Below, in pieces: positions 2,353 through 61,143 of a DNA stretch of 64,000 nt (the stretch's first letter is position 1; each line of letters starts with the position of its first letter). The stretch is from Parcubacteria group bacterium GW2011_GWE2_39_37 (GTDB lineage Bacteria > Patescibacteriota > Patescibacteriia > Patescibacteriales > GWE2-39-37). Where the stretch lies: NCBI GenBank assembly GCA_000995135.1, contig LBWY01000001.1:501-64500 (forward strand), in the 5' to 3' direction. Both the position numbers and the translations under genes were made by a program. The notes under the pieces are model-generated. The model was given only the letters and a program-made list of their open reading frames with translations, made no database searches and was not told the origin of the DNA.

Positions 2353-3351
2353 ATGAAAAAAATACTTTATTTAACATTCGTAATTTTTAGTTTTAGCATT
2401 TACATCAATATGGCACTGGCCACCGAAACCAATGATAGCTGCTATAAAAAAATAGCAGATACTTGGTTCTATATAGATGAAGCGCTATCCAATATTGACG
2501 CTGCTAGTTTTCAAACAATAAATAGCTGCTACGCTAAAGACAAAAATCATGTTTATTACGAAAAAGATATTATAATTAATGCAGACACATTATCATTTCA
2601 GCCAATAAATATTTTTTATTCAAAAGACAAGAATCATGTTTTTTTTAAGAAACAAATAATTACTAACGCTAATCCATTTTCATTCAAACCATTAAACACT
2701 CATTACAGCATTGATAATAACAGTTGCTATTACTATGACTATTATTCTAACAAGGCTTACTTAATTGAGGGTTGCGATCCCAAAACGCTAAAACCGTTAA
2801 ATACTCCTTATGCGAAAGACAACAAAAAAGCCTACTATTTAGGTAAGTATCTTGAAGTTAAAGACGTGGATACTTTTAGATTGAACAAAACTGGCGAGAC
2901 ATATGCCGAGGACAAGTATAATTATTATATTGCTGGTGAAAGAAAAGAAAGCAAAAAATCGATGCATGAAAGAGTAAAAGGGAAAATTGTTATAAAAAAA
3001 GAAGATAACGGAAAAGCTTATTATGTAAGCCCAACAAAAAAAGCAATATTTTATCTTGGCAGACCAGCCGACGCCTTTGAGGTAATGCGCCAGCAAGGGA
3101 TTGGAATATCCAATGAAGACTTGCAAAAAATACCAAACGGCTCAAGCAAATTAAATGACAAAGATATTAATATGAAATTTGCTGAAAAGCAAAAGGGTAA
3201 AATATTTATACAAACACAAAGCCGAGGTGAGGCTTGGTATATAAATCCATCAGATGCAAAAAGATATTATTTAGGCAGACCAGCTGATGCGTTTAAAGTA
3301 ATGCGTAATTTAGGATTAGGCATATCCAATAATGATTTTTTAGACTTGTAA
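2353..3351 (+). CDS. secreted DKNYY-repeat protein with two C-terminal about 50-aa GRPADAF...GxGISN modules
   Basis: Signal peptide. Repeated DKNHVYY / DKNHVFF / DNNSCYY / DNKKAYY motifs (DKNYY family). Tandem KGKIxI...AWYxxP...YYLGRPADAFxVMRxxGxGISNxD modules. Confidence 0.7.
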   Translation: MKKILYLTFVIFSFSIYINMALATETNDSCYKKIADTWFYIDEALSNIDAASFQTINSCYAKDKNHVYYEKDIIINADTLSFQPINIFYSKDKNHVFFKKQIITNANPFSFKPLNTHYSIDNNSCYYYDYYSNKAYLIEGCDPKTLKPLNTPYAKDNKKAYYLGKYLEVKDVDTFRLNKTGETYAEDKYNYYIAGERKESKKSMHERVKGKIVIKKEDNGKAYYVSPTKKAIFYLGRPADAFEVMRQQGIGISNEDLQKIPNGSSKLNDKDINMKFAEKQKGKIFIQTQSRGEAWYINPSDAKRYYLGRPADAFKVMRNLGLGISNNDFLDL

Positions 3352-3459
3352 AAATATTTTTACCCATTTATAGTCTTAACATCCACCAAAAAAAAGTTAA
3401 ATAACACCTCAGATAACGTCAAAAGGTTTTTCAAATAAGGACAAAATCATTCACTACTA

Positions 3460-3493
3460 AAACACCTATAACTTTATAAGGTTATAGGTGTTT
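3460..3493. terminator. bidirectional terminator between convergent genes
   Basis: ACACCTATAAC...GTTATAGGTGT hairpin flanked by A and T runs. Confidence 0.6.
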
Positions 3494-3519
3494 ATTATTA
3501 AAGTGTTTGAAAGAAGTTT

Positions 3520-4890
3520 CTACCTATCCCCAATCTCATACCAATTGATCTTTCTGGAGATGAACATTACGATTGCCAGGATAATGAATAGTCCGATGCT
3601 GCCGACCAATAGAGAATAATCTTGGAGTTGGAGGATGGCATAGATGAAGCCATAAACTATGATCATGATTCCTGCCTGCAAAAGCGACATGCGCGAGCTT
3701 TTAAAGATATGCCTGGAGTAGAGCGTAACCATCAAGATAGTTGCCAAGCTGGATATAAGATAGGCGAAATTGAAATTCAGATGTTCGCTTAATGACAGAA
3801 GTAGTGAGAAAAATAGAACTAAAGACAAACCGACTAGCAGATACTGCATCGGATGGATGCGATTCTTATTCATTACTTCAGAAAAGAAGAAAATCAAAAA
3901 GGTTAATGCGATAAAAAGAATAGCATATTTGATGGAACGAGAATTTTTTTGATATTCATCCACTGGAATCAAGAGATTGACGCCAAACGCAGAAGCCAGC
4001 ATATCTTGATTGCTATTGCCTATCCAGCTTTGCGGGAAATTCCTGTTAAGCTGTAATACTTTCCATTTGGCCAGGAATCCATCCTTACCGACTTCCCGTT
4101 CATCAGGCAAAAAGGCACCGCCAAAATTCGGATCCTTCCAAGATGATGTAAGCTCTAGGGTTGTTTCGCCGCCAAGAGGAACGAAATCCAGACCTTCGCT
4201 ACCATTCAAATTCAAATCAAAGGAATATTGGATCGGTTTGGTGTTGGCAAGGTCCAATGCCACTTTCACATTAACACCGGAATTCAATCCTACTGCAGCG
4301 GTCCGACTTTTTTCAATCATTCCTTTTTCAAAAACACTAGAATCAAATCCTCCTAAAACCATCTCGCTTCCCAATCCAGGCTTGGCATTCATCTCATTGC
4401 CATTCCACTTAATTTTTATATTTTCTTTAATACCACGCATATCAGGAATTCCAACAGAGACTAAGGCATCATTCCACAAAACCACATCTGAAGCGATATT
4501 AAGATCTTTTAAATTCGGCTGACTGAAAGCTCCTTGAAACTTCAGATTGGAATTATAGACTGCCGCCTGGTAGATTCCTCTTTGTCTCATCTCGGGAGCG
4601 ATAGCGCCGTTGATAGACAAGCTATCCGGCAGAAAGTGAGCGTACTCCAATTGCTCAACAGCTTTACCGTCCTTATCCACCATCTTTTTATAAGGCAAGG
4701 TCAAAATCGGTCCGGCAATAGTCTGTTTACTGCCCCATTTAGCATCGATTTCATTTGTCGCCTCATCCCTTCTTTGTTCTCTTTCATCAATTAATTCGCT
4801 AATCATAGCGGTTGGAATAAGCAACAACAAGGATAAAAACCCGATGGAGAGAACCTTAAAAATGATAAAATTTTTGTGTTTTTCAAACAT
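3520..4890 (-). CDS. creD: cell envelope integrity protein CreD
   Basis: The N-terminal TM plus IxEReqrR...GPIL(T/A)xPY layout and the C-terminal multi-TM block match CreD. Confidence 0.8.
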   Translation of the reverse strand: MFEKHKNFIIFKVLSIGFLSLLLLIPTAMISELIDEREQRRDEATNEIDAKWGSKQTIAGPILTLPYKKMVDKDGKAVEQLEYAHFLPDSLSINGAIAPEMRQRGIYQAAVYNSNLKFQGAFSQPNLKDLNIASDVVLWNDALVSVGIPDMRGIKENIKIKWNGNEMNAKPGLGSEMVLGGFDSSVFEKGMIEKSRTAAVGLNSGVNVKVALDLANTKPIQYSFDLNLNGSEGLDFVPLGGETTLELTSSWKDPNFGGAFLPDEREVGKDGFLAKWKVLQLNRNFPQSWIGNSNQDMLASAFGVNLLIPVDEYQKNSRSIKYAILFIALTFLIFFFSEVMNKNRIHPMQYLLVGLSLVLFFSLLLSLSEHLNFNFAYLISSLATILMVTLYSRHIFKSSRMSLLQAGIMIIVYGFIYAILQLQDYSLLVGSIGLFIILAIVMFISRKINWYEIGDR

Positions 4891-4944
4891 ATAGTTTCAT
4901 TAATAATAATCTTATTTAATTAAGATGTTTTGCTGTAGAACCTT

Positions 4945-5292
4945 TTATATTTTTTTAACAAGTTCTGATTTCAAATACATCGCTCCAATTCCATCGACTT
5001 TACAAGAAATGTTATGGCCATTGTGGCTTTCAATCAATGATATGTTTTTAACCTTTGTTCCAGCTTTGATTCCCGATGAAGAGCCTTTTACTTTCAAGTC
5101 TTTTATTACCGCCACAGAATCTCCATTCTGAAGAATATTTCCATTAGCATCAAGAATCACCGCTTGTGATTCGTCATTTTCTACCATCTCAGACGGATCC
5201 CACTCATGAAAACATTCAGCGCAAATCCATAAATTCATATCTTGATAGGTATTTATGGAATTGCATTTAGGGCACTTGTATTCGTTACTCAT
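4945..5292 (-). CDS. yjdM: zinc-ribbon PhnA/YjdM family protein
   Basis: CPKCNS...CAECFHEW zinc ribbon plus [25 protein letters not shown]...KSELVKK. Near-colinear with E. coli YjdM as I recall it. Confidence 0.9.
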
Positions 5293-5457
5293 ATTAGTAT
5301 TTATTACTTCAATTACTATATATTTCTATCCTACCACTTTAAGGCAAATTAGCAATACTGCTGGGAAACCGATTTTATTTTTGATTAAGGCAATCCATGC
5401 TTTAATAACTTGCTAATAAATATGTTTTAAATTAACCATTATTAAAATACTGAAAGC

Positions 5458-6582
5458 ATGAAAAACATAACCAAAGATTTCGCAAGTAATCTTCTGAAAG
5501 CAGCGGATATTAAAATCAATGGCAGCCGGCCATGGGATGTAAAAATCTATCAAGACAAACTTTATAACCGCATCTTGCGCCAAGGTTCGATCGGCTTGGG
5601 AGAATCCTATGTGGACGGTTGGTGGGAAGCTGAACGGCTAGATGAATTTTTTCATCGAGCCCTTCGTGCTAAATTAGATCGGGCAGTTAAAATCAAAAGA
5701 GACTGGAAAGCTTTGCTCTTTATTGTAGGACAGGTCTTGATTAATCACCAAACTAAAAGCGGTTCCCAAATTGTCGGAGAGCAACACTATGATCTGGGCA
5801 ATGATCTTTTTGAAGCCATGCTAGACAAAAGAATGGTCTACACTTGTGGCTATTGGAAAAACGCTGACAATCTAGATCAAGCCCAAGAGGATAAATTGGA
5901 TTTAGTCTGTAAAAAATTACAGCTGAAGCCTGGGCAAAGCATTCTTGATATCGGCTGCGGCTGGGGCAGTTTTGCTAAATTTGCTGCTGAACGCTATGGC
6001 GCTAGTGTCACTGGCATAACTATATCAAAAGAACAGGTGACTCTCGGCAATAAACTATGCGCCGGTTTGCCAGTAAAAATAATCAATCAAGATTATCGAG
6101 AAATCCAGGGTAGATTTGACCACATCGTTTCCCTGGGCATGTTTGAGCATGTGGGCTACAAAAACTATCGCACCTACATGAAGATGGTTCACAAACATTT
6201 GAAAGACGACGGACTATTTTTACTACATACCATCGGCAGTCTTAAAACCGTAAAAATAAATGAGGCCTGGATAGATAAATATATTTTTCCAAATGCAATG
6301 CTGCCCTCGATTGCACAGATAGGCAAATCGCTTGAAGGACTTTTTGTAATGGAGGATTGGCACAACTTCGGAGCAGACTACGACAAGACTCTGATGGCCT
6401 GGTTGGAAAATTTTGAAAAAGCTTGGCCTCAACTTGAACCGATTTATGGCCAACGCTTTTACCGGATGTGGAAATTTTTCCTTGCTGCCTGCGCAGGCGG
6501 CTTCAGGGCAAGAAAAATGCAGCTCTGGCAGATCATCCTTTCAAAAAATGGAGTTGCCAACGGCTACACATCGTTCCGCTAA
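5458..6582 (+). CDS. cfa: cyclopropane-fatty-acyl-phospholipid synthase
   Basis: GESYVDGWW, HYDLGNDLF, ILDIGCGWG and GMFEHVG motifs, and about 374 aa. Confidence 0.9.
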   Translation: MKNITKDFASNLLKAADIKINGSRPWDVKIYQDKLYNRILRQGSIGLGESYVDGWWEAERLDEFFHRALRAKLDRAVKIKRDWKALLFIVGQVLINHQTKSGSQIVGEQHYDLGNDLFEAMLDKRMVYTCGYWKNADNLDQAQEDKLDLVCKKLQLKPGQSILDIGCGWGSFAKFAAERYGASVTGITISKEQVTLGNKLCAGLPVKIINQDYREIQGRFDHIVSLGMFEHVGYKNYRTYMKMVHKHLKDDGLFLLHTIGSLKTVKINEAWIDKYIFPNAMLPSIAQIGKSLEGLFVMEDWHNFGADYDKTLMAWLENFEKAWPQLEPIYGQRFYRMWKFFLAACAGGFRARKMQLWQIILSKNGVANGYTSFR

Positions 6583-6699
6583 TATTTTTAAATAAACTTT
6601 TATTTCTTGTTACTATCCTCTCTTGCTCCCATAACCACAGCACCGATAACCCCTCCAACAAGAATCAAAATAATAATAAGCATCATATATATTCTTAAA

Positions 6700-7752
6700 T
6701 TATTTTTCTGCCAAATATAATTTCAACCTCTTCAGTCCTTCTTGGATTTTTTCTACATCAAGCGCATAGCTGAAGCGCACACGGTCCGGCTCACCGAACC
6801 AAGCACCATCATATGCGATCAGTTGATATTTATAATATAGCTCATTGATAGCCTTGTTAGCATTTTCTATCTTAGGAAAAACATAAAATGCTCCCTCCGG
6901 CTGCCACAGATCCAACCCCATCTCTTTCATGCCATTATAAATCATATCTCGACGCTCACTCCAGATCTGCAAATGATGATCGATATAATCTCGTGGGCTC
7001 TTAAGCGCGGCCAAAGCCATCTCCTGAGCCAGAACATTGGTATTCATGGAAGCATGGGTCTTGATCTCTACAATCTTATCTACAAGCTGCTGATCGTATG
7101 AATGAAGATAACCCACCCGATAACCGCACATGCCATAGGTCTTGGAAAAAGAATCAATCGAGATAACTTTTTTTCCAGCCAGTTGATAAAATTCTCCCAC
7201 GTAAACTAGTTCGCGGTAGACATTGTCGGCAATCACATAAATATCAAGCTCCTCGGCCATTTTTTCAATCTCTTTTAAAACTTCTCGGTCTTGCAAAGTA
7301 CCGGTTGGATTAGAAGGAGAATTGATTAAAATCGCTCGAGCATCCGGTAGTTTTTTCTTCAACTCTTCCAGAACAATTTTTCCATCTATCAGTTCGTAAT
7401 AATCAATCTCCAGATGAGCAAATTGGACATTATAAGGATAGGAATAATAATATGGCTTAGGTAATAAAATTTTCCCGCCCGGAACATATAATGCTCTCAA
7501 TACTAAATCCAACGCCTCCGAAGCGCCATTAGTGATCACAAATTGTCCTGGCTGAGATTTTTCATAAACCGGCGTCAGCGCTTCACGCAATTCTTGCAAT
7601 CCGCAAACCTGCCCATATTTAAAACTACGATAATTATCAAGCACGGCAAAAGCCTCTGCCGGCGGTGCTAAATCCGGCTGGCCGGAGCCGAAAGAAATCA
7701 GCTCACCTCCGCCCTTACCGATAAAAAATGATGGACTATTGATATTTTGCAT
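6700..7752 (-). CDS. class I/II pyridoxal-phosphate-dependent aminotransferase
   Basis: NPSNPTG and SFSKTYGMCGYRVGY (PLP lysine) motifs. Confidence 0.8.
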   Translation of the reverse strand: MQNINSPSFFIGKGGGELISFGSGQPDLAPPAEAFAVLDNYRSFKYGQVCGLQELREALTPVYEKSQPGQFVITNGASEALDLVLRALYVPGGKILLPKPYYYSYPYNVQFAHLEIDYYELIDGKIVLEELKKKLPDARAILINSPSNPTGTLQDREVLKEIEKMAEELDIYVIADNVYRELVYVGEFYQLAGKKVISIDSFSKTYGMCGYRVGYLHSYDQQLVDKIVEIKTHASMNTNVLAQEMALAALKSPRDYIDHHLQIWSERRDMIYNGMKEMGLDLWQPEGAFYVFPKIENANKAINELYYKYQLIAYDGAWFGEPDRVRFSYALDVEKIQEGLKRLKLYLAEK

Positions 7753-7826
7753 ATTAGATACTAATTTTTTTAATACTTTAAGTATCTAATAATTTTTGTT
7801 AAAAAGCAATTCGAGACTTTTATCTA

Positions 7827-8384
7827 TCAGATCCTTAAGCTTTTTGTCCAGACGACCAAAGACTCAATCAATTCTTTGATTTTCCGCTTAGTTTTTTCAT
7901 CAGTCAAATTACCCTCGGCATCAAATTTTTCTTCTGCCAAGCCGACCATCACCTCGGGTCGGTTGATCGGCTTCATGTCTAGAAATACCGACATCTGTCG
8001 CAGATGATACTGCATTCTTGTCGTGCCTAACATACCGATTGATGCGCCCATGATTGCTACCGGCTTGCCCTCAAAACTATTGTCGCCATATGGCCGGGAA
8101 GCGCAATCGATCGCATTTTTCAAAACTCCAGAAACAGAATAATTATATTCGGGGCTAACAAATAAGACAGCGTCGGCTGCCTTTATTTTATTTTTTAAAA
8201 TCAAAACCGCCTGATTGCCATTATTTTCCAAATCCTGATTGTAAAGTGGAATCTGGCTGATATCCAAAATTTCTATCTCCACTTTTTCCGGAGCAAGCTT
8301 CACCGCCTCTCTCAAAAGCGCGGAGTTAAAAGATCTTTTTCGCAAGCTGCCAGAGATACCGACTATTTTAATCCTGTTGTTCAT
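7827..8384 (-). CDS. NADPH-dependent FMN reductase family oxidoreductase
   Basis: KIVGISGSLRKRSFN...SPEYNYSVSGVLKNAIDxxS pattern. Confidence 0.8.
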   Translation of the reverse strand: MNNRIKIVGISGSLRKRSFNSALLREAVKLAPEKVEIEILDISQIPLYNQDLENNGNQAVLILKNKIKAADAVLFVSPEYNYSVSGVLKNAIDCASRPYGDNSFEGKPVAIMGASIGMLGTTRMQYHLRQMSVFLDMKPINRPEVMVGLAEEKFDAEGNLTDEKTKRKIKELIESLVVWTKSLRI

Positions 8385-56497: not shown

Positions 56498-56569
56498 GGC
56501 GCTATCGTCTAGTGGTCAGGACACCAGGTTTTCATCCTGGTAACCGGAGTTCGATTCTCCGTAGCGCTA
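56498..56569 (+). tRNA. tRNA-Glu (anticodon UUC), no encoded CCA
   Basis: Cloverleaf read by eye: acceptor GGCGCTA/TAGCGCT (G1-U72), D arm GTCT-AGTGGTCAGG-ACAC, anticodon arm CCAGG-TTTTCAT-CCTGG, T arm CGGAG-TTCGATT-CTCCG, discriminator A. Colinear with E. coli tRNA-Glu. Confidence 0.9.
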
Positions 56570-56578
56570 CAAATAAAA

Positions 56579-56605
56579 ATAGCCAGCTTATGCTGGCTAT
56601 TTTTG
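56579..56605 (+). terminator. terminator after tRNA-Glu
   Basis: ATAGCCAGC-TTAT-GCTGGCTAT followed by T4. Confidence 0.75.
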
Positions 56606-56735
56606 TTTATATTGTTTCGGAGCAGAGAACTCTGGCCTGACTAATTCTGTAATCGAAAAATTCCCTAGACATGTTACAACAATGAATAAAAAAATATTAT
56701 TAGAAACGATTGGCGTGGGGCTTCCGCCCCAGTGA

Positions 56736-56820: not shown

Positions 56821-57642
56821 TTATCCTAAATATTTTTTTCTGATTGCCTTATCTACCTCTTCTGATTGTTCAAAAGCCATTTCAAATATTTTTTTTAAAC
56901 AATCCGCTATGGGTTTACTTTTTATCAGCATAGCAAAGCTTTCTTCAAAAGAATAAAATACGGTTGTATTTTTGTATATGTTCACCTGGATTGGATAATT
57001 CAGCTCTGCTGGGATTAGATGCGTTCTTCTAAGATGCTCAGTTTCTTTGTTAACTGTCTCCTTAATGTTAAACGGCAGCGCAGGAATAATTGCTTTAACC
57101 GGAATTTTTCTCTGAACCCTGCGTTTGTAGTAATTAGGATAGAGTTCTGGTAAATATTTATGATCATCTTCATTGCTGCCGTAGCCGATGATTTCATCAG
57201 CTTCTCCAAGCACATGTTCAAAAGCTTGCTTAACTCCTTCTTTGCCTTCAAAATAATACAATTTTGGTTTTTTAGTTTCAAAGTTTTGCAAAGATCTCAG
57301 TTCGGGCAAATAATCTTCAATCTCTTTTCTATTCAAAGATATCTCCTCCTCTTTTGCTTTCAAATAATTTATTAAATCTTTTACATCTTCAACTAAAAAC
57401 AAAAATGAGTTATTTTTTTTGCTTCGTTTAATTACGCCCATTTTATCGCTTAAATGATATAGGGCCAATAAAATTGTGGCTTTAGGCAGTGAAAGTTTTT
57501 TAGAAATTTCAGAAGCCTTCATCGGACTTCTTTGCAGGAGGCAAACATAACAAGAAATCTCTAGATCGCTAAGACCTACCTTTTTCAATATTAAATGTAT
57601 TTTTTTATTATCCATACAATTGTCGTCAATAAATGTTGACAC
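56821..57642 (-). CDS. TrmB-family transcriptional regulator
   Basis: N-terminal wHTH (GLSDLEISCYVCLLQRSPMKASEISKKLSLPKATILLALYHL) plus a C-terminal effector-like domain. Divergent from the radical SAM operon. Confidence 0.6.
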   Translation of the reverse strand: MSTFIDDNCMDNKKIHLILKKVGLSDLEISCYVCLLQRSPMKASEISKKLSLPKATILLALYHLSDKMGVIKRSKKNNSFLFLVEDVKDLINYLKAKEEEISLNRKEIEDYLPELRSLQNFETKKPKLYYFEGKEGVKQAFEHVLGEADEIIGYGSNEDDHKYLPELYPNYYKRRVQRKIPVKAIIPALPFNIKETVNKETEHLRRTHLIPAELNYPIQVNIYKNTTVFYSFEESFAMLIKSKPIADCLKKIFEMAFEQSEEVDKAIRKKYLG

Positions 57643-57766
57643 TATATGATTTTATATTAGCAAAAATATTGCATTTTGTCAATTTCATTTGATTTTTAAT
57701 GATATGTTTTTGTTTTTAGAGCTACTATTAGTTGTTAGGACATAAAAAATTAAGGAGGAACATAAA

Positions 57767-58888
57767 ATGTTTAGCAAATATTTTAGCTCATTGAAAATCG
57801 AAGATTTATTAAGTACCAATATTGCTGACAACAGTGAGGTAAGTGAAATTTTATCAGGCAACAGTTTGTCCTTACTTGATGTTGCGAAGTTAATCACCGC
57901 CTATCACAATCCTTTTGCAAGAAAGTCCGTTATTGAGAAGGCCGTTAAAGTCCGCAGTTCTATTTGGCATAACAGTTTGTTTATTATGCCGCCTCTCTAC
58001 ATCTCAAACGGAGATAAAAAAAGAGGAGGTTGCTTAGACCACTGTCTGTACTGCCCATGGCATAACGGCAATGTGCCGCAAGAACAAATAATCAGATTAA
58101 GCGCAGGCGCGGTAAGGGATGAAGTAAAATTGCTGCTTGATATGGGATATGGTGACATTGAGCTTGTTTCTGCCACTGACCCAGTCTTGTTTAGCGGCAT
58201 GAGAGCAGTAAATTATGTTGCAGCTGCTAAAAATGCGGGCGCCAAAAATGTGGGGATAAATTTTTTCCCATTTAAAAGTGCGGCGGATTACTCTGAACTA
58301 GCAAGCGCTGGCTGTACATTTTCAATTGTCTGGCAGGAAACATATTTGGCAAACATCTACCGTAAGATGCATCCATGCGGACCAAAATTAAACATGGGTT
58401 ATAGATTAGACGCCCATGATCGAGCCCTGCGAGGAGGAATCAAAACTGTCGGCGTGGCCTTCCTCGGTGGACTTGCAGACTGGAGATATGAAACATTAGC
58501 AACAATTGCTCACGCCCGATATCTTCGTAAAGAATATGGGGCAAATATTATCTTCGGTATGCCCAGATGGAAGAATGGGGTTGGTGTTAACATCACTTCT
58601 TGTACATATGATGATCAAATGTATGAGTTTGTTGGTGCCTTATATTCATTGGCCGTCCCGCAATCACTCCCTTGGTTTTCTACTCGAGAAAATTTTAATT
58701 TAAGCGACAGGTCTGCACGCGGAGGAGGTTGTATATTTACTCTAGATTGCTCAACCGAGGTCGGGGGATATTCTCATAAAAACGGAGCGCCACAATTTCC
58801 AGTGTTCTCAACGTCATTTAAACAGGGTGCTGAGTTGCTGAAAAAATCAGGGTTTAAAATCAACATTCATCTTCCCTTTGGGGAATAA
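57767..58888 (+). CDS. ThiH-family radical SAM enzyme (2-iminoacetate synthase / aromatic amino-acid lyase-like)
   Basis: AAGGAGG SD. PLYISN...CLDHCLYC (CX3CX2C), VWQETY, RLDAHDRALRGGIKTVGVAFLGGL, FSTREN and VGGY...QFP are colinear with E. coli ThiH as I recall it. There is a 7-aa insert (GDKKRGG) before the cluster cysteines. Confidence 0.75.
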   Translation: MFSKYFSSLKIEDLLSTNIADNSEVSEILSGNSLSLLDVAKLITAYHNPFARKSVIEKAVKVRSSIWHNSLFIMPPLYISNGDKKRGGCLDHCLYCPWHNGNVPQEQIIRLSAGAVRDEVKLLLDMGYGDIELVSATDPVLFSGMRAVNYVAAAKNAGAKNVGINFFPFKSAADYSELASAGCTFSIVWQETYLANIYRKMHPCGPKLNMGYRLDAHDRALRGGIKTVGVAFLGGLADWRYETLATIAHARYLRKEYGANIIFGMPRWKNGVGVNITSCTYDDQMYEFVGALYSLAVPQSLPWFSTRENFNLSDRSARGGGCIFTLDCSTEVGGYSHKNGAPQFPVFSTSFKQGAELLKKSGFKINIHLPFGE

Positions 58889-58902
58889 AAGGAGACAGGA
58901 TT

Positions 58903-59646
58903 ATGAAAACAAAATGCTTTTATGAAGACGGTCTTTGGCAAGCGATTGAAGCTCACCCGAAATATGATTTGGGCAAGAGAGAGCTTGAGGCGCTTATAAA
59001 ATTATTGCCTGTTGTCGCAAATGCCATAAATAACACAATTGCCAATCTCTTTCATTTAGGAATTGGTAATGGGAGGGAAATAAAATTTTTTATTGAAAAT
59101 TTTCCTGTCATCAACACCTATCTTGCTAACGACATCTGCGCTGCCAGCTTGAGCAGGGTAATAGCCGAGACAAGAAAAGCGCTTCCTGAAGTAAATTTTA
59201 TCGAAGCTCATGCTGATGTTGAGCTTAAAAACGTTATTAAAGCACTACGCGACAACCTCTTCAATTCCACCCTCATCGCCCTTGTAGCTAATGCAGTCAT
59301 TTTTTCCAACCGCTCAATGGACAAAAAAATTCATGATGCTATGCATGAAGGCGATTATTTTATCGTTACGCTTGAATCGTATCATTCTGACATTTTCAAG
59401 TCTTACGCCATTGAGCCGGTATACGACCTCCTGAGCAAAAGCGGCTTAAAGGTTACGGCTGAAAATGTTGACATCATCTACGAAGACCAATGCCTTAAAA
59501 TGCTTTGCGAAGACGAGCTCTTGCTTTCGTCATATAAGCCGACCGTAAACCAGCTACGTGCGCGCATGGCATCATCAGGATTCAAGGAGGTTTTATTGCA
59601 GCATTATGAAGACATTCACATGATTGGCGCTCTTTACAAAAGATAG
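58903..59646 (+). CDS. EgtD-like (Methyltransf_33-type) SAM-dependent methyltransferase, divergent and short
   Basis: AGGAG SD 14 nt after the upstream stop. FYEDGLWQAIEAHPKYDLGKRELEAL, HLGIGNGRE, NDICAASL, IEAHADVE and EGDYFIVTLE are colinear with EgtD blocks (FYD..LF..I...PEYY.TR.E..IL; ELGSG; DVDA; GDFE; GD.LLLG.DL). Confidence 0.45.
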   Translation: MKTKCFYEDGLWQAIEAHPKYDLGKRELEALIKLLPVVANAINNTIANLFHLGIGNGREIKFFIENFPVINTYLANDICAASLSRVIAETRKALPEVNFIEAHADVELKNVIKALRDNLFNSTLIALVANAVIFSNRSMDKKIHDAMHEGDYFIVTLESYHSDIFKSYAIEPVYDLLSKSGLKVTAENVDIIYEDQCLKMLCEDELLLSSYKPTVNQLRARMASSGFKEVLLQHYEDIHMIGALYKR

Positions 59647-59659
59647 CAACCAAATCTAT

Positions 59660-59688
59660 AGGCAGACTTAAAATATCTGCCTTTTTTA
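59660..59688 (+). terminator. operon terminator
   Basis: AGGCAGA-N9-TCTGCCT followed by T6. Confidence 0.75.
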
Positions 59689-59802
59689 TTTGCTTTAAGG
59701 AATGTGTTGACTCTAAAATAGTTTCCCGAGCATTGCTAATACCCCTACATACTAAAAAAACAACACTTTTCAAGTGTTGTTTTTTACCTTCCTAATAATT
59801 CG

Positions 59803-60261
59803 TTATTTTTTATTCTCTTCTTTAAATTTTATTTTTACCTCTAAAGGTAGCTTGGCAACGACACTAAACCTTGCTTCATCATGAAGCTTCTGGCTAACTT
59901 GAAAATAATATTGCCCAGTGATTGTTACTGGCAGTAAATTTATTGCCATTCTTGTTGTTACACTTCTCATTTCATTAGGAGCACTTTCATCAGTAGGCTT
60001 TAATACTGGTAATTCAGAACTGATTAGAACTTTTTTGCTGGGATTCATTAACTCAACTTTAATTAAAAATTCTTTTATTTGTTTTCTGCTATTGTCCCAA
60101 AGACTCACTATTTCAAGATTTGCAGGAATAAATTTTTTTGTTTCTAGCTTTTTTCTGTCTACTATGAATCCGATTGAGTCCATAGCGTTTATTATACTAG
60201 TTCTATTAGTATCTTGGTCACGAATTGATGTTTGGCATAAAATTGACCAGACGTGTTTCAT
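59803..60261 (-). CDS. hypothetical protein
   Basis: 152-aa ORF with its own terminator (59754-59785). No family confidently recognised. Confidence 0.5.
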   Translation of the reverse strand: MKHVWSILCQTSIRDQDTNRTSIINAMDSIGFIVDRKKLETKKFIPANLEIVSLWDNSRKQIKEFLIKVELMNPSKKVLISSELPVLKPTDESAPNEMRSVTTRMAINLLPVTITGQYYFQVSQKLHDEARFSVVAKLPLEVKIKFKEENKK

Positions 60262-60280
60262 ATTTTTTTATTAAATTATT

Positions 60281-60706
60281 TTAATTTTTTAATGCTAACT
60301 GTCCGTTGTATTGTGCGGCAGTATAATACGGTTCTTCATTCTCATAACTAACATCTCTGCGTTTAACATCTTCTAGGTTGTGAAAAACATAATTGTGAAT
60401 TTTCTGTTGTACATCACCTAATTCTGGCAAAGACAAAAATCCTCCTAAATTAAATTGAATATTTAACGCCCTTGATATTCTTAAAATTAGGTCTACGCCA
60501 AAATTAACTTCTGCATTCTCTATTTTAGAGATGACCTTTTGCGTAGTGCCAACTATTTTTGCTAAATCCTGCTGACTAAGCTTAAGCGCAATTCTGGCAC
60601 TATATACTTCTTCCGCAATTGCCAATAAATCCTTCAACAAATCATATTCCTGTTTTCTTTTTTTACCCTTTATACCAAAATCAAATTCTTGATTATTACT
60701 TTTCAT
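60281..60706 (-). CDS. XRE-family HTH protein, HigA-like antitoxin
   Basis: LKLSQQDLAKIVGTTQKVISKIENAEVNFGVDLILRISRAL. Lies 8 nt downstream of the putative toxin gene. Confidence 0.6.
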   Translation of the reverse strand: MKSNNQEFDFGIKGKKRKQEYDLLKDLLAIAEEVYSARIALKLSQQDLAKIVGTTQKVISKIENAEVNFGVDLILRISRALNIQFNLGGFLSLPELGDVQQKIHNYVFHNLEDVKRRDVSYENEEPYYTAAQYNGQLALKN

Positions 60707-60714
60707 AAATTTGC

Positions 60715-61143
60715 TTAAAATTTTATTTTTCTAAGGCAATTATTGTTATTAATATATTTTTTATAGAAATTCTCCGTATTTTTTATCTTTTCTATATATT
60801 TTTTATCAACTTGATTGCTCTCCTTTTTGTTATAATCTGGCTTGTGTCGTTTTTCTAGCCAATCAAATAATATCGCAACATTGTCAAAATAAACAAAAAA
60901 AATTCGTATTAGCACATTTCTCGGGAGTTGAATTTTAATTTCATATATTGTTTTGTTATCATAACATTCTCCACCCCTGCACGGATAAACAAATTTTGAT
61001 GAGAGTCCTTCTTTTCCATTAAATACATGGGCAATAATTCCCTTGATCCTGTCTTGATCTTTTGGCTTTTTCACATAAGACACAATAAGGTTCCCAACTG
61101 GACACATGTCGGTTTCTATATCTTTATATAAAAATGTGTCCAT
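60715..61143 (-). CDS. Gp49/HigB-like toxin candidate with an N-terminal extension
   Basis: IYEIKIQLPRNVLIRIFFVYFDNVAILFDWLEKR fits the yElRi...yRilYf...ivll..f.KK pattern of the RelE/HigB (Gp49) family. Gene order is toxin first. Confidence 0.45.
   Translation of the reverse strand: MDTFLYKDIETDMCPVGNLIVSYVKKPKDQDRIKGIIAHVFNGKEGLSSKFVYPCRGGECYDNKTIYEIKIQLPRNVLIRIFFVYFDNVAILFDWLEKRHKPDYNKKESNQVDKKYIEKIKNTENFYKKYINNNNCLRKIKF

Follow-up and report, generated by a model that had tools for sequence, protein, structure and literature searches.

The aromatic-amino-acid radical lyases (ThiH, HydG, NosL, and CofH) are a small and intensively studied group of radical SAM enzymes (SAM is S-adenosylmethionine), and every member has brought new radical chemistry. 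CofH, a subunit of F0 synthase, is a tyrosine-cleaving enzyme whose useful product is the side-chain radical; 2-iminoacetate is its by-product. In the nosiheptide pathway, the radical lyase NosL is joined by NosI, an adenylating enzyme that activates the acid, and by NosN, a methylating radical SAM enzyme. Here we describe a cassette (positions 56821-59688) in a 64-kb stretch of DNA, which we call the window, from a 134,646-nucleotide (nt) contig of Parcubacteria group bacterium GW2011_GWE2_39_37. This bacterium belongs to the candidate phyla radiation (CPR), or Patescibacteria. The cassette encodes a radical SAM protein with the ThiH/HydG fold, a SAM-dependent methyltransferase with the EgtD fold, and a divergent TrmB-family regulator.

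We found that the radical SAM protein falls in a clade that had not been described before, within the branch of radical SAM enzymes formed by the aromatic-amino-acid lyases (ThiH, HydG, NosL), and that it is obligately coupled to a methyltransferase, to which it is fused in one lineage. The folds themselves are known; what is new is the radical SAM subfamily and the enzyme pairing. A sequence-only reading of this DNA had stated that no described pathway combines the two enzyme families, and our literature searches agree: they found no description of a pairing of ThiH with EgtD or Methyltransf_33, or of ThiH-like paralogs of this kind. This would be a fifth, well-separated clade of the radical lyases and, with its rebuilt pocket and its sometimes fused methyltransferase partner, a direct target for enzymology.

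A separate clade of ThiH-like radical SAM proteins

The radical SAM gene (57767..58888, plus strand) encodes a protein of 373 amino acids that is identical to UT48_C0001G0062. It is indeed colinear with ThiH, as the sequence-only reading had it: residues 18-364 align to positions 19-357 of the 364 positions in the NCBIfam model for ThiH (TIGR02351, E = 1.8e-48). However, the score for this match is 165.5 bits, which is under half of the equivalog cut-off of 380 bits. The model for HydG (TIGR03955) gives 124.7 bits versus a cut-off of 312.15, with a match that stops at profile position 352 of 470, and the model for NosL/NocL (TIGR04158) gives 16.3 bits versus a cut-off of 400, so the protein is under every NCBIfam cut-off. 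In Pfam, the Radical_SAM match is sub-threshold only and the BATS domain has no match. When we searched the Protein Data Bank (PDB) by sequence, the top match was HydG (4wcx, E = 1.4e-33), with ThiH (7pd1) at E = 1.1e-32; the match to NosL was marginal (E = 0.003) and covered residues 187-316 only. We used 58 homologs to build an AlphaFold2 model (pLDDT, the predicted local distance difference test score, of 95.5), which gave a similar picture. Its best Foldseek matches were to ThiH (7pd1/7pd2, TM score of 0.87, root-mean-square deviation of 2.1-2.6), while HydG was at 0.87 and NosL at 0.82. We detected no specific similarity to CofH, and the window has no cofG or F420 genes. (One relative, in locus L018, lies near a gene of the F420-ligase family.)

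We placed the protein in a distance-based neighbor-joining tree of 131 homologs, which has no bootstrap or other support values. Orthodox ThiH and HydG form one clade (clade A), and the window's protein lies in a separate sister clade (clade B), so the expectation that it would fall outside orthodox ThiH was correct. Within clade B, subclade B1 includes proteins from Acidobacteriota, Methylacidiphilum, Armatimonadota, and Cloacimonadota. Clade B2 splits into B2b, the clade of the CPR cassettes and of the window's own protein, and B2a. The two are distinguished by a six-residue insert (G82-D-K-K-R-G87, encoded at 58010..58027), which is the signature of B2b and is absent from B2a. The sequence-only reading had noticed an insert directly before the CX3CX2C motif; it was right about the insert and wrong about its length, which it gave as seven residues. 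The insert is present in 49 of 53 B2b sequences, with the consensus G-D-P-[KE]-[RK]-G, and our alignments show that it is absent from ThiH, HydG, and B1 as well. The radical SAM [4Fe-4S] motif itself (C89-X3-C93-X2-C96, encoded at 58031..58054) is invariant in all 131 aligned homologs.

The same reading called the enzyme an orphan, which it is not. We identified about 62 relatives at 39-71% identity, all of them from CPR/Patescibacteria where named. Below 39%, identity falls sharply, to about 34% for Acidobacteriota and about 30% for HydG and ThiH. (Identity to ThiH is 24-27%, and it is 24% for EcThiH.) Its family is thus well delimited, with about 60-80 sequences from CPR bacteria, and more remote relatives occur in Acidobacteriota and other phyla. 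Of the 1.84 billion representatives in a library clustered at 50% identity, just 5 score at least 399 bits with the family profile, and the next tier is at 200-295 bits; hence the family is rare. Some long proteins among the matches from this library might have been taken for B2 members, but we rejected them. They are HydE/HydF/HypC-HydG fusions or are fusions of BATS-containing relatives to SIR2/FCD, hemerythrin, or GGDEF domains. For instance, ThiH/HydG-like radical SAM domains outside of clade B2 are fused to SIR2-like and FCD (GntR ligand-binding) domains in P0230 and P0242, to a hemerythrin domain in P0237, and to a GGDEF domain in P0303. Also, some metagenome-assembled genomes (MAGs) have taxon labels that seem unreliable, namely "Gammaproteobacteria" for L014 and L021 and "Saccharibacteria" for L016 and L017.

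The public names for the cassette's two enzymes are "hypothetical protein", "radical SAM protein", "2-iminoacetate synthase", and "L-histidine N(alpha)-methyltransferase". The last two of these, as annotations of the family, are probably wrong.

A rebuilt substrate pocket

The roles of active-site residues are known from the tyrosine-bound structure of TcThiH (PDB 7PD1/7PD2), in which Arg306 and the β-bulge residue Ser321 are the primary markers of tyrosine selection (PMC9046217). We mapped these residues by using a HMMER alignment and a MAFFT alignment of 131 sequences, so the correspondences are sequence-based and do not come from superposed coordinates. (The chain numbering in 7pd1 is the TcThiH numbering plus 10.) The cassette protein shares with ThiH its length, the (β/α)8 fold, the place of the CX3CX2C motif, and the anchor that holds the substrate's amino and carboxyl groups: T299/R300/E301 of TcThiH correspond to T306/R307/E308, which are invariant. 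Ser318 of TcThiH is conservatively replaced by Thr325.

In contrast, the residues that surround the phenolate of tyrosine have been lost. Arg306 of TcThiH is replaced by Ser313, Ser321 by Cys328, and Glu158 by Asn165, and these states are conserved throughout clade B. A glycine of TcThiH has become an aspartate (Asp327), which lies directly ahead of Cys328. Relative to ThiH, the family also has a new invariant tryptophan (Trp189) and a new invariant glutamate (Glu132). The rebuilt pocket (E132, W189, S/C313, D/N327, and C328) is common to all of clade B, while Asp130, like the insert, is specific to B2b. Because the bottom of the side-chain pocket has been rebuilt (Ser313, Asp327, Cys328), the substrate is probably not a phenolate-bound tyrosine.

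Could the protein be a HydG-like maturase that makes CO/CN or another metallocofactor ligand? Its similarity to HydG (PDB 4WCX, 4RTB) is comparable to its similarity to ThiH, HydG is its top PDB match by sequence, and Asn165, which corresponds to Glu158 of TcThiH, is the state found in HydG. But HydG has a compensating glutamate (at TcThiH position 128) where the cassette protein has Val134, which is two residues after Glu132 on the same strand. Furthermore, at 373 amino acids the protein lacks HydG's C-terminal auxiliary-cluster domain (about 90 amino acids), it scores far below the HydG cut-off, and we did not see hydE, hydF, or hydrogenase genes in any of the loci that we examined. The architecture essentially refutes the idea of a HydG-like maturase, which we consider to be very improbable.

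NosL and NocL resemble the cassette protein in their fold and also lack the tyrosine-specific arginine. However, the combination of the β-bulge and Cys328 is the cassette protein's own, there are no thiopeptide genes at its locus, and the CPR cassette lacks a ligase. More distant relatives do lie beside adenylating ligases (CapK-like/AMP-binding or GH3) as well as methyltransferases, which is an echo of nosiheptide synthesis, where the radical lyase is followed by activation of the acid and then by methylation.

Obligate coupling to a methyltransferase

We compiled 80 loci (numbered with an L) from exact-protein look-ups, one scan of GTDB genomes, and one scan of metagenomes. The counts below rest on our own calling of open reading frames, with products labelled by BLAST and Pfam. 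We found the gene pair in dozens of independent contigs, whose flanking genes differ. A methyltransferase or a methyltransferase-like gene adjoins the radical SAM gene in 19 of 21 distinct B2b loci and in 9 of the 12 B2a loci that could be assessed; the two genes are separated by -100 to +136 nt. The flanks of the B2b loci are unrelated to each other (dnaA/dnaN, PBP, tyrS, ruvC, sortase, and others). Hence, the adjacency is conserved in many related genomes, as is the divergent TrmB gene.

The sequence-only reading proposed a pairing with an EgtD-type methyltransferase. The pairing holds, but the constant partner is "a methyltransferase" and not specifically one of the EgtD type: class I proteins (Methyltransf_11/12/25), a family that we call c19, or a B12-binding radical SAM protein can substitute. 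Among the 21 B2b loci, the partner is Methyltransf_33 (the EgtD family) in 14, c19 in 3, Methyltransf_11 in 1 (L009), a B12-binding radical SAM protein in 1 (L075), and none in 2. In L075 (941-2395), the B2b radical SAM gene is 60% identical to the window's and is followed by the 484-amino-acid B12-binding protein in the place of Methyltransf_33, so a different kind of methylase may fill the same slot. In B2a, the partner is Methyltransf_33 in L053, L055/58, and L061, Methyltransf_11/12 in L004, L007, and L067, and c19 in L018 and L019. The usual order is the radical SAM gene and then the methyltransferase, but the order is reversed in two B2b loci (L001 and L015) and in one B2a locus (L061). 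Another B2a radical SAM gene (L065, 1000-1944) is followed after 27 nt by a ThiF-family (E1-like) protein of 314 amino acids instead of a methyltransferase.

The c19 proteins are the third recurrent partner. They have about 280-307 amino acids and no Pfam model, and they contain a class-I SAM-binding motif I (ELGASxGA...LLDI). They are found in L010 (6064-6987), L019 (5154-5996), L018 (5087-5516), L072-L074, and L076, and several of these loci (L010, L073, and L074) also have a TrmB gene. We considered whether c19 might be a relative of the cassette's methyltransferase family, but hhalign shows no relation, so c19 is a different methyltransferase-like family.

One of the 9 B2a cases is a true fusion of the radical SAM protein to Methyltransf_12 (613 amino acids), which is found in a MAG from GTDB (L021), in a metagenome contig from JGI (L063), and in the partial protein P0104. 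The neighbors of the fusion gene (6001-7842; 5001-6842 in L063) encode a GH3-family acyl-acid amido synthetase and two proteins with PEP-utilizer domains. Additional neighbors in B2a are CapK-like/AMP-binding genes within glycosyltransferase loci (L004 and L007), the GH3-family gene (L063), and a Liv-type binding protein (L067).

The pairing with Methyltransf_33 reaches into clade B1, whose members are 30-34% identical to the window's protein. In L033, L035, and L051, we found a Methyltransf_11 gene, a full-length Methyltransf_33 gene (317-319 amino acids), the radical SAM gene, and a complete Liv-type ABC importer. Two other B1 loci (L037 and L039) combine a binding protein with a Methyltransf_12 gene and the radical SAM gene, and in most other B1 loci we saw no methyltransferase. 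Across these loci (L033 1829-10379, L035 2054-7161, L051, L039, L037, and L067), the Liv-type importer genes encode Peripla_BP_6, two BPD_transp_2, and two ABC_tran proteins; the importer-linked sets are from Acidobacteriota, Methylacidiphilum, Cloacimonadota, and other bacteria. That the radical SAM-methyltransferase set is embedded with importer genes suggests that a substrate is imported. (L037 also encodes a protein with a weak match to PNP_UDP_1, the nucleosidase superfamily.) As the radical SAM proteins diverge from the window's, the methyltransferases diverge in step: the paired identities are 62/49% for L011, 50/37% for L008, 34/31% for L033, and 30/27% for L035. Such a pattern fits the two genes having been inherited together.

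We also considered that the adjacency might be fortuitous, or that the genes might be decaying remnants with no joint function. Some relatives are in fact broken. The radical SAM gene is split by a frameshift in L054 (4614-5735, with no methyltransferase nearby) and in L019/L059, and these are possibly decaying copies; there is a premature stop in the methyltransferase of L080; and L016 and L017 have no methyltransferase. But both of the window's genes are intact, they have Shine-Dalgarno sequences, and the structure models of their products are very confident. In addition, 40 columns are invariant across 58 radical SAM homologs, and the pairing persists across phyla down to 30% identity and includes a fusion. 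Chance or decay is therefore hardly credible as an explanation.

Two sets of candidates were set aside. First, P0052 (L080, 1-1448) resembles a fusion of the radical SAM protein to Methyltransf_33, as the frame is open across the junction, but there is a premature stop or a frameshift inside the methyltransferase part of this 1.4-kb contig. A sequencing error or a pseudogene may account for this, and we give the case little weight next to the solid fusion to Methyltransf_12. Second, L033 and L035 contain proteins of 335-360 amino acids that cluster by BLAST as second paralogs of Methyltransf_33. These have no SAM motifs in the alignment and no match in Pfam, so we did not count them as methyltransferases.

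A shortened methyltransferase with the EgtD fold

The cassette's methyltransferase (58903..59646, plus strand; 247 amino acids) is identical to UT48_C0001G0063. It was assigned to the EgtD type from sequence, and our results bear this out. The protein matches Pfam's Methyltransf_33 at 37.9 bits, above the gathering threshold of 23, but the match covers only positions 18-179 of 304. The EgtD equivalog (TIGR03438) gives 30.5 bits versus a cut-off of 290.9, and, as with the radical SAM protein, no NCBIfam model covers it. We found 23 homologs at 40-80% identity, all of which have precomputed matches to PF10017. With the structure model (pLDDT 93.2), the top 15 Foldseek matches were all to EgtD (TM scores of 0.72-0.80, E down to 8.7e-14), and the next was AzeJ, a SAM-cyclising enzyme, at 0.69. 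A search of the PDB with the sequence alone gave spurious matches to TAL effectors and asparaginase, from summed weak repeats, and EgtD was reached only with family profiles. Similarly, phmmer with the full-length Methyltransf_33 protein from L035 did not find EgtD in the PDB.

Our family profile aligns to EgtD (7scf, E = 1.3e-6) over residues 6-160. The roles of EgtD's residues have been described, including that of Asn166, which is a ligand of the α-amine (PMC8593015). According to a HMMER alignment to 7scf, N130 corresponds to EgtD's Asn166, Y7 to Tyr39, and W12 to Phe47, all of which are invariant in the family, and Tyr/Phe21 corresponds to Tyr56. The N-terminal pattern K-x-x-Y...W/F...P-x-Y of EgtD (PDB 4PIM/4UY6/7SCF), motif I, and the acidic residues are also kept. 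This conservation of EgtD's contacts with the α-amine and Cα suggests that the substrate of the methyltransferase is an intact α-amino acid. On the other hand, the protein is only about 12% identical to EgtD, it has 247 amino acids instead of about 320, its C-terminal substrate domain is trimmed, and its partner is a radical SAM enzyme. Within the shortened domain, S167-Y168 and S210-Y211-K212 are candidate motifs, by our guess, for the roles of EgtD's Glu282/Thr213, which specify histidine, and Tyr206/Ser284, which are ligands of the carboxylate. Neither the window nor any of the cassette loci has egtB, egtC, egtE, or eanB as a neighbor.

Relationship to thiamine synthesis

The simplest alternative is that the protein is a divergent but genuine ThiH, which would provide 2-iminoacetate for thiazole synthesis, with thiG, thiS, and thiE elsewhere in the genome and the methyltransferase as an accessory. 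ThiH is its best match among both NCBIfam profiles and structures. Also, there is a lineage in the sister subclade that is linked to thiamine genes. In an archaeal MAG (ARS102, locus L020), a radical SAM gene whose product is 41% identical to the window's lies 24 nt after thiE in a thiS-thiG-thiE-radical SAM arrangement (4272-7113). The same arrangement, at 99% identity, is present in L056 and in L057, the latter on a 322-kb contig.

However, most of the evidence argues against a genuine ThiH. Besides the low score, the separate clade, and the loss of the tyrosine-phenolate residues, the window does not encode the rest of the pathway. The sequence-only reading reported no thiG, thiS, thiF, thiE, or thiC in the 64 kb, and this is confirmed by tblastn: queries with ThiS, ThiG, and ThiE from L020 and with ThiC, ThiE, ThiF, ThiG, and ThiS from E. 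coli found nothing in the window except for the ThiH-like gene itself. Nor did we find thi genes in any B2b locus or beside more than 30 other B2 loci. A search of the cassette region for riboswitches detected none for thiamine pyrophosphate (TPP) or for SAM. An obligate and sometimes fused methyltransferase has no part in thiazole synthesis. Furthermore, CPR genomes usually lack cofactor biosynthesis. The non-thiamine setting that had been proposed therefore holds for the window and for the B2b loci, although one lineage of the wider family does have a thiamine link.

The thi-linked lineage is itself atypical. Together with P0140, it carries E132Q, E308A, and S313N. All other B2 sequences are unchanged at these three positions, and position 308 is also fixed in ThiH and HydG. 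The nearest relatives of the L020 protein (61-67% identity) are paired with methyltransferases (L053, L055, L058, and L061). We read the thi-linked lineage as a secondary recruitment with remodelling of the active site, and it looks like a recruited substitute for ThiH. Such a remodelled recruit also suggests that the enzymes paired with methyltransferases have a different role. Overall, we think it improbable that the cassette encodes a genuine ThiH. The offshoot in the thi operon, with its three active-site changes, is a natural comparison for how this fold sets the specificity for substrate and product.

Potential function of the cassette

We tentatively favor the view that the cassette is a TrmB-controlled, two-enzyme module for a small molecule, in which the radical SAM enzyme cleaves an α-amino acid that has been N-methylated by its EgtD-fold partner, and that it is not a thiamine gene. 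In this scheme, the methyltransferase would N-methylate the amino acid ahead of the radical step; we prefer this order because the methyltransferase keeps its amino-acid-binding residues. The radical SAM enzyme would reductively cleave SAM at the C89/C93/C96 cluster, would grip the same amino acid by the Thr306-Arg307-Glu308 anchor, and would start a radical fragmentation, most simply a ThiH-type scission between Cα and Cβ. The output would be a methylated small molecule derived from an amino acid, perhaps a modified aromatic amino-acid derivative, as was suggested from the sequence alone. The module is conserved, regulated, and expensive in SAM, and CPR bacteria have almost no biosynthetic capacity, which suggests that its product is important for their symbiotic lifestyle.

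Several observations weigh against this proposal. The class of substrate, the order of the steps, and the type of bond broken are all deduced from homology, as is the rest of the chemistry. ThiH-type chemistry requires an N-H, which would be blocked by exhaustive EgtD-type trimethylation, so methylation before cleavage would have to stop at mono-methylation. The partners come from unrelated methyltransferase families and include a B12 radical SAM protein, from which C-methylation would be expected, and this speaks against a single N-methylation step. We obtained no sequence alignment to EgtD for the shortened C-terminal substrate domain of the methyltransferase. Two loci with a TrmB gene and a radical SAM gene (L016 and L017) have no adjacent methyltransferase. 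Finally, the existence of the L020 lineage implies that the clade-B fold is at least recruitable for making 2-iminoacetate.

The variety of partners could be explained more easily if the lyase acts first. The radical SAM enzyme would then cleave an unmodified amino acid to 2-iminoacetate and a methyl-arene or methyl-heteroarene (similar to cresol, skatole, or methylimidazole), and the methyltransferase would O- or N-methylate this fragment. Such methylation would complete a volatile or antimicrobial product, or else it would detoxify the fragment. Methyltransf_33, Methyltransf_11/12/25, c19, and the B12 radical SAM protein would be swappable because each would decorate the fragment at a different atom, and the thi-operon lineage would deliver 2-iminoacetate without needing a methyltransferase. 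The order of domains in the fusion (radical SAM and then methyltransferase) also fits. But the Methyltransf_33 partner retains N130, Y7, and W12, which fit an intact amino acid better than a small arene, and it would be odd for a minimal genome to spend SAM on a cleavage just to obtain a cresol-type compound with no evident use. We consider cleavage before methylation to be a serious rival to methylation before cleavage, albeit an unlikely one.

A bolder version of the proposal, which is possible but doubtful, is that the enzymes of clade B form a new functional class, which acts on a methylated amino acid by chemistry unlike that of ThiH, HydG, NosL, or CofH. For example, the enzyme could abstract a hydrogen from the new N-methyl group, with subsequent ring closure onto an aromatic side chain, or prior N-methylation could enable a radical elimination. 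If so, the CPR cassette would make a new methylated metabolite derived from an amino acid, which might serve as a signal, as an antimicrobial, or as a building block for surface glycans, and larger genomes would import the same metabolite or would activate it further with PaaK/GH3-type ligases.

Arrangement and regulation of the cassette

The methyltransferase gene begins just 14 nt after the radical SAM gene. The spacer (58889..58902) is AAGGAGACAGGATT, which includes an AAGGAG Shine-Dalgarno sequence, so the description of a 247-amino-acid open reading frame 14 nt downstream with its own Shine-Dalgarno sequence was accurate. The ATG of the radical SAM gene is preceded by AAGGAGG. After the methyltransferase gene, there is an intrinsic-terminator-like hairpin (59660..59688, plus strand) with a 7-bp stem (AGGCAGA/TCTGCCT), a 9-nt loop, and a U6 tail. 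The predicted folding energy of the surrounding 54 nt (59647-59700) is -11 kcal/mol, with a z score of -2.3. A simple scanner missed this terminator because it allows loops of up to 8 nt.

Facing the two enzyme genes is the gene for a 273-amino-acid regulator of the TrmB family (56821..57642, minus strand). Both the terminator at the end of the pair and the TrmB-type regulator had been recognized from the sequence alone. The regulator's N-terminal winged helix-turn-helix domain (residues 19-77) matches PF01978 at 44 bits, versus a gathering threshold of 25.6. It is followed by an uncharacterised domain of about 190 amino acids, and Pfam finds nothing beyond the helix-turn-helix, including no C-terminal sugar-binding domain of TrmB. 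A search of the PDB by sequence found no relative of the protein. TrmB and TrmBL1 of Thermococcales share with it the N-terminal winged-helix domain and a divergent arrangement with the operon that they control, but we detected no TrmB sugar-binding domain in the cassette regulator, and it scores far under both NCBIfam equivalog cut-offs (13-17 bits versus 500-650). In 18 B2b loci, the upstream sequence is long enough to show whether a divergent TrmB gene lies next to the radical SAM gene, and 16 of these have one, either as an ortholog (59-67% identity) or as a more distant TrmB-family paralog (27-34% identity). From this arrangement, we infer that TrmB regulates the cassette.

The 124 nt between the divergent genes (57643..57766) contain promoters on both strands, according to a promoter scan. 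On the minus strand, the putative trmB promoter is strong and σ70-like (TTGACA at 57682-57677, a 17-nt spacer, and TAATAT, with an upstream TG; 10 of 12 matches). On the plus strand, the candidate promoter box for the operon (TTGTCA at 57676, a 16-nt spacer, and AATGAT) overlaps the -35 box of the trmB promoter. The orthologous regions between the divergent genes in L001, L011, L012, L015, L016, and L066 retain a TGTCAA box and a TATTATAGC-like box. We considered whether the TGTCAA box might be the operator for TrmB, but it is more simply explained as the -35 hexamer of the trmB promoter.

Neighboring genes

Anti-phage defence models from PADLOC do not match the radical SAM protein or the methyltransferase. 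Downstream of the cassette are three small genes on the minus strand (59803-61143), which encode a DUF6941-like protein (152 amino acids), an Xre-type helix-turn-helix protein (HTH_3, 141 amino acids), and a protein with no assigned function (142 amino acids). The GC content of these genes is 0.29-0.32, versus 0.41-0.42 for the cassette's enzymes. The HTH_3 protein resembles control proteins of defence and restriction-modification systems in PADLOC, so a toxin-antitoxin pair, or an accessory pair of another kind, may be encoded here.

On the far side of the regulator gene from the enzymes, there is a tRNA-Glu (56498-56570, plus strand) and then a strong hairpin (the whole region is 56498-56608). 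A tRNA gene flanks the cassette in two other loci as well (L008, 1-51, and L053, 4509-4579), and in L008 a large serine recombinase (3214-4491) lies directly after the methyltransferase gene. The cassette may be mobile as a small island.

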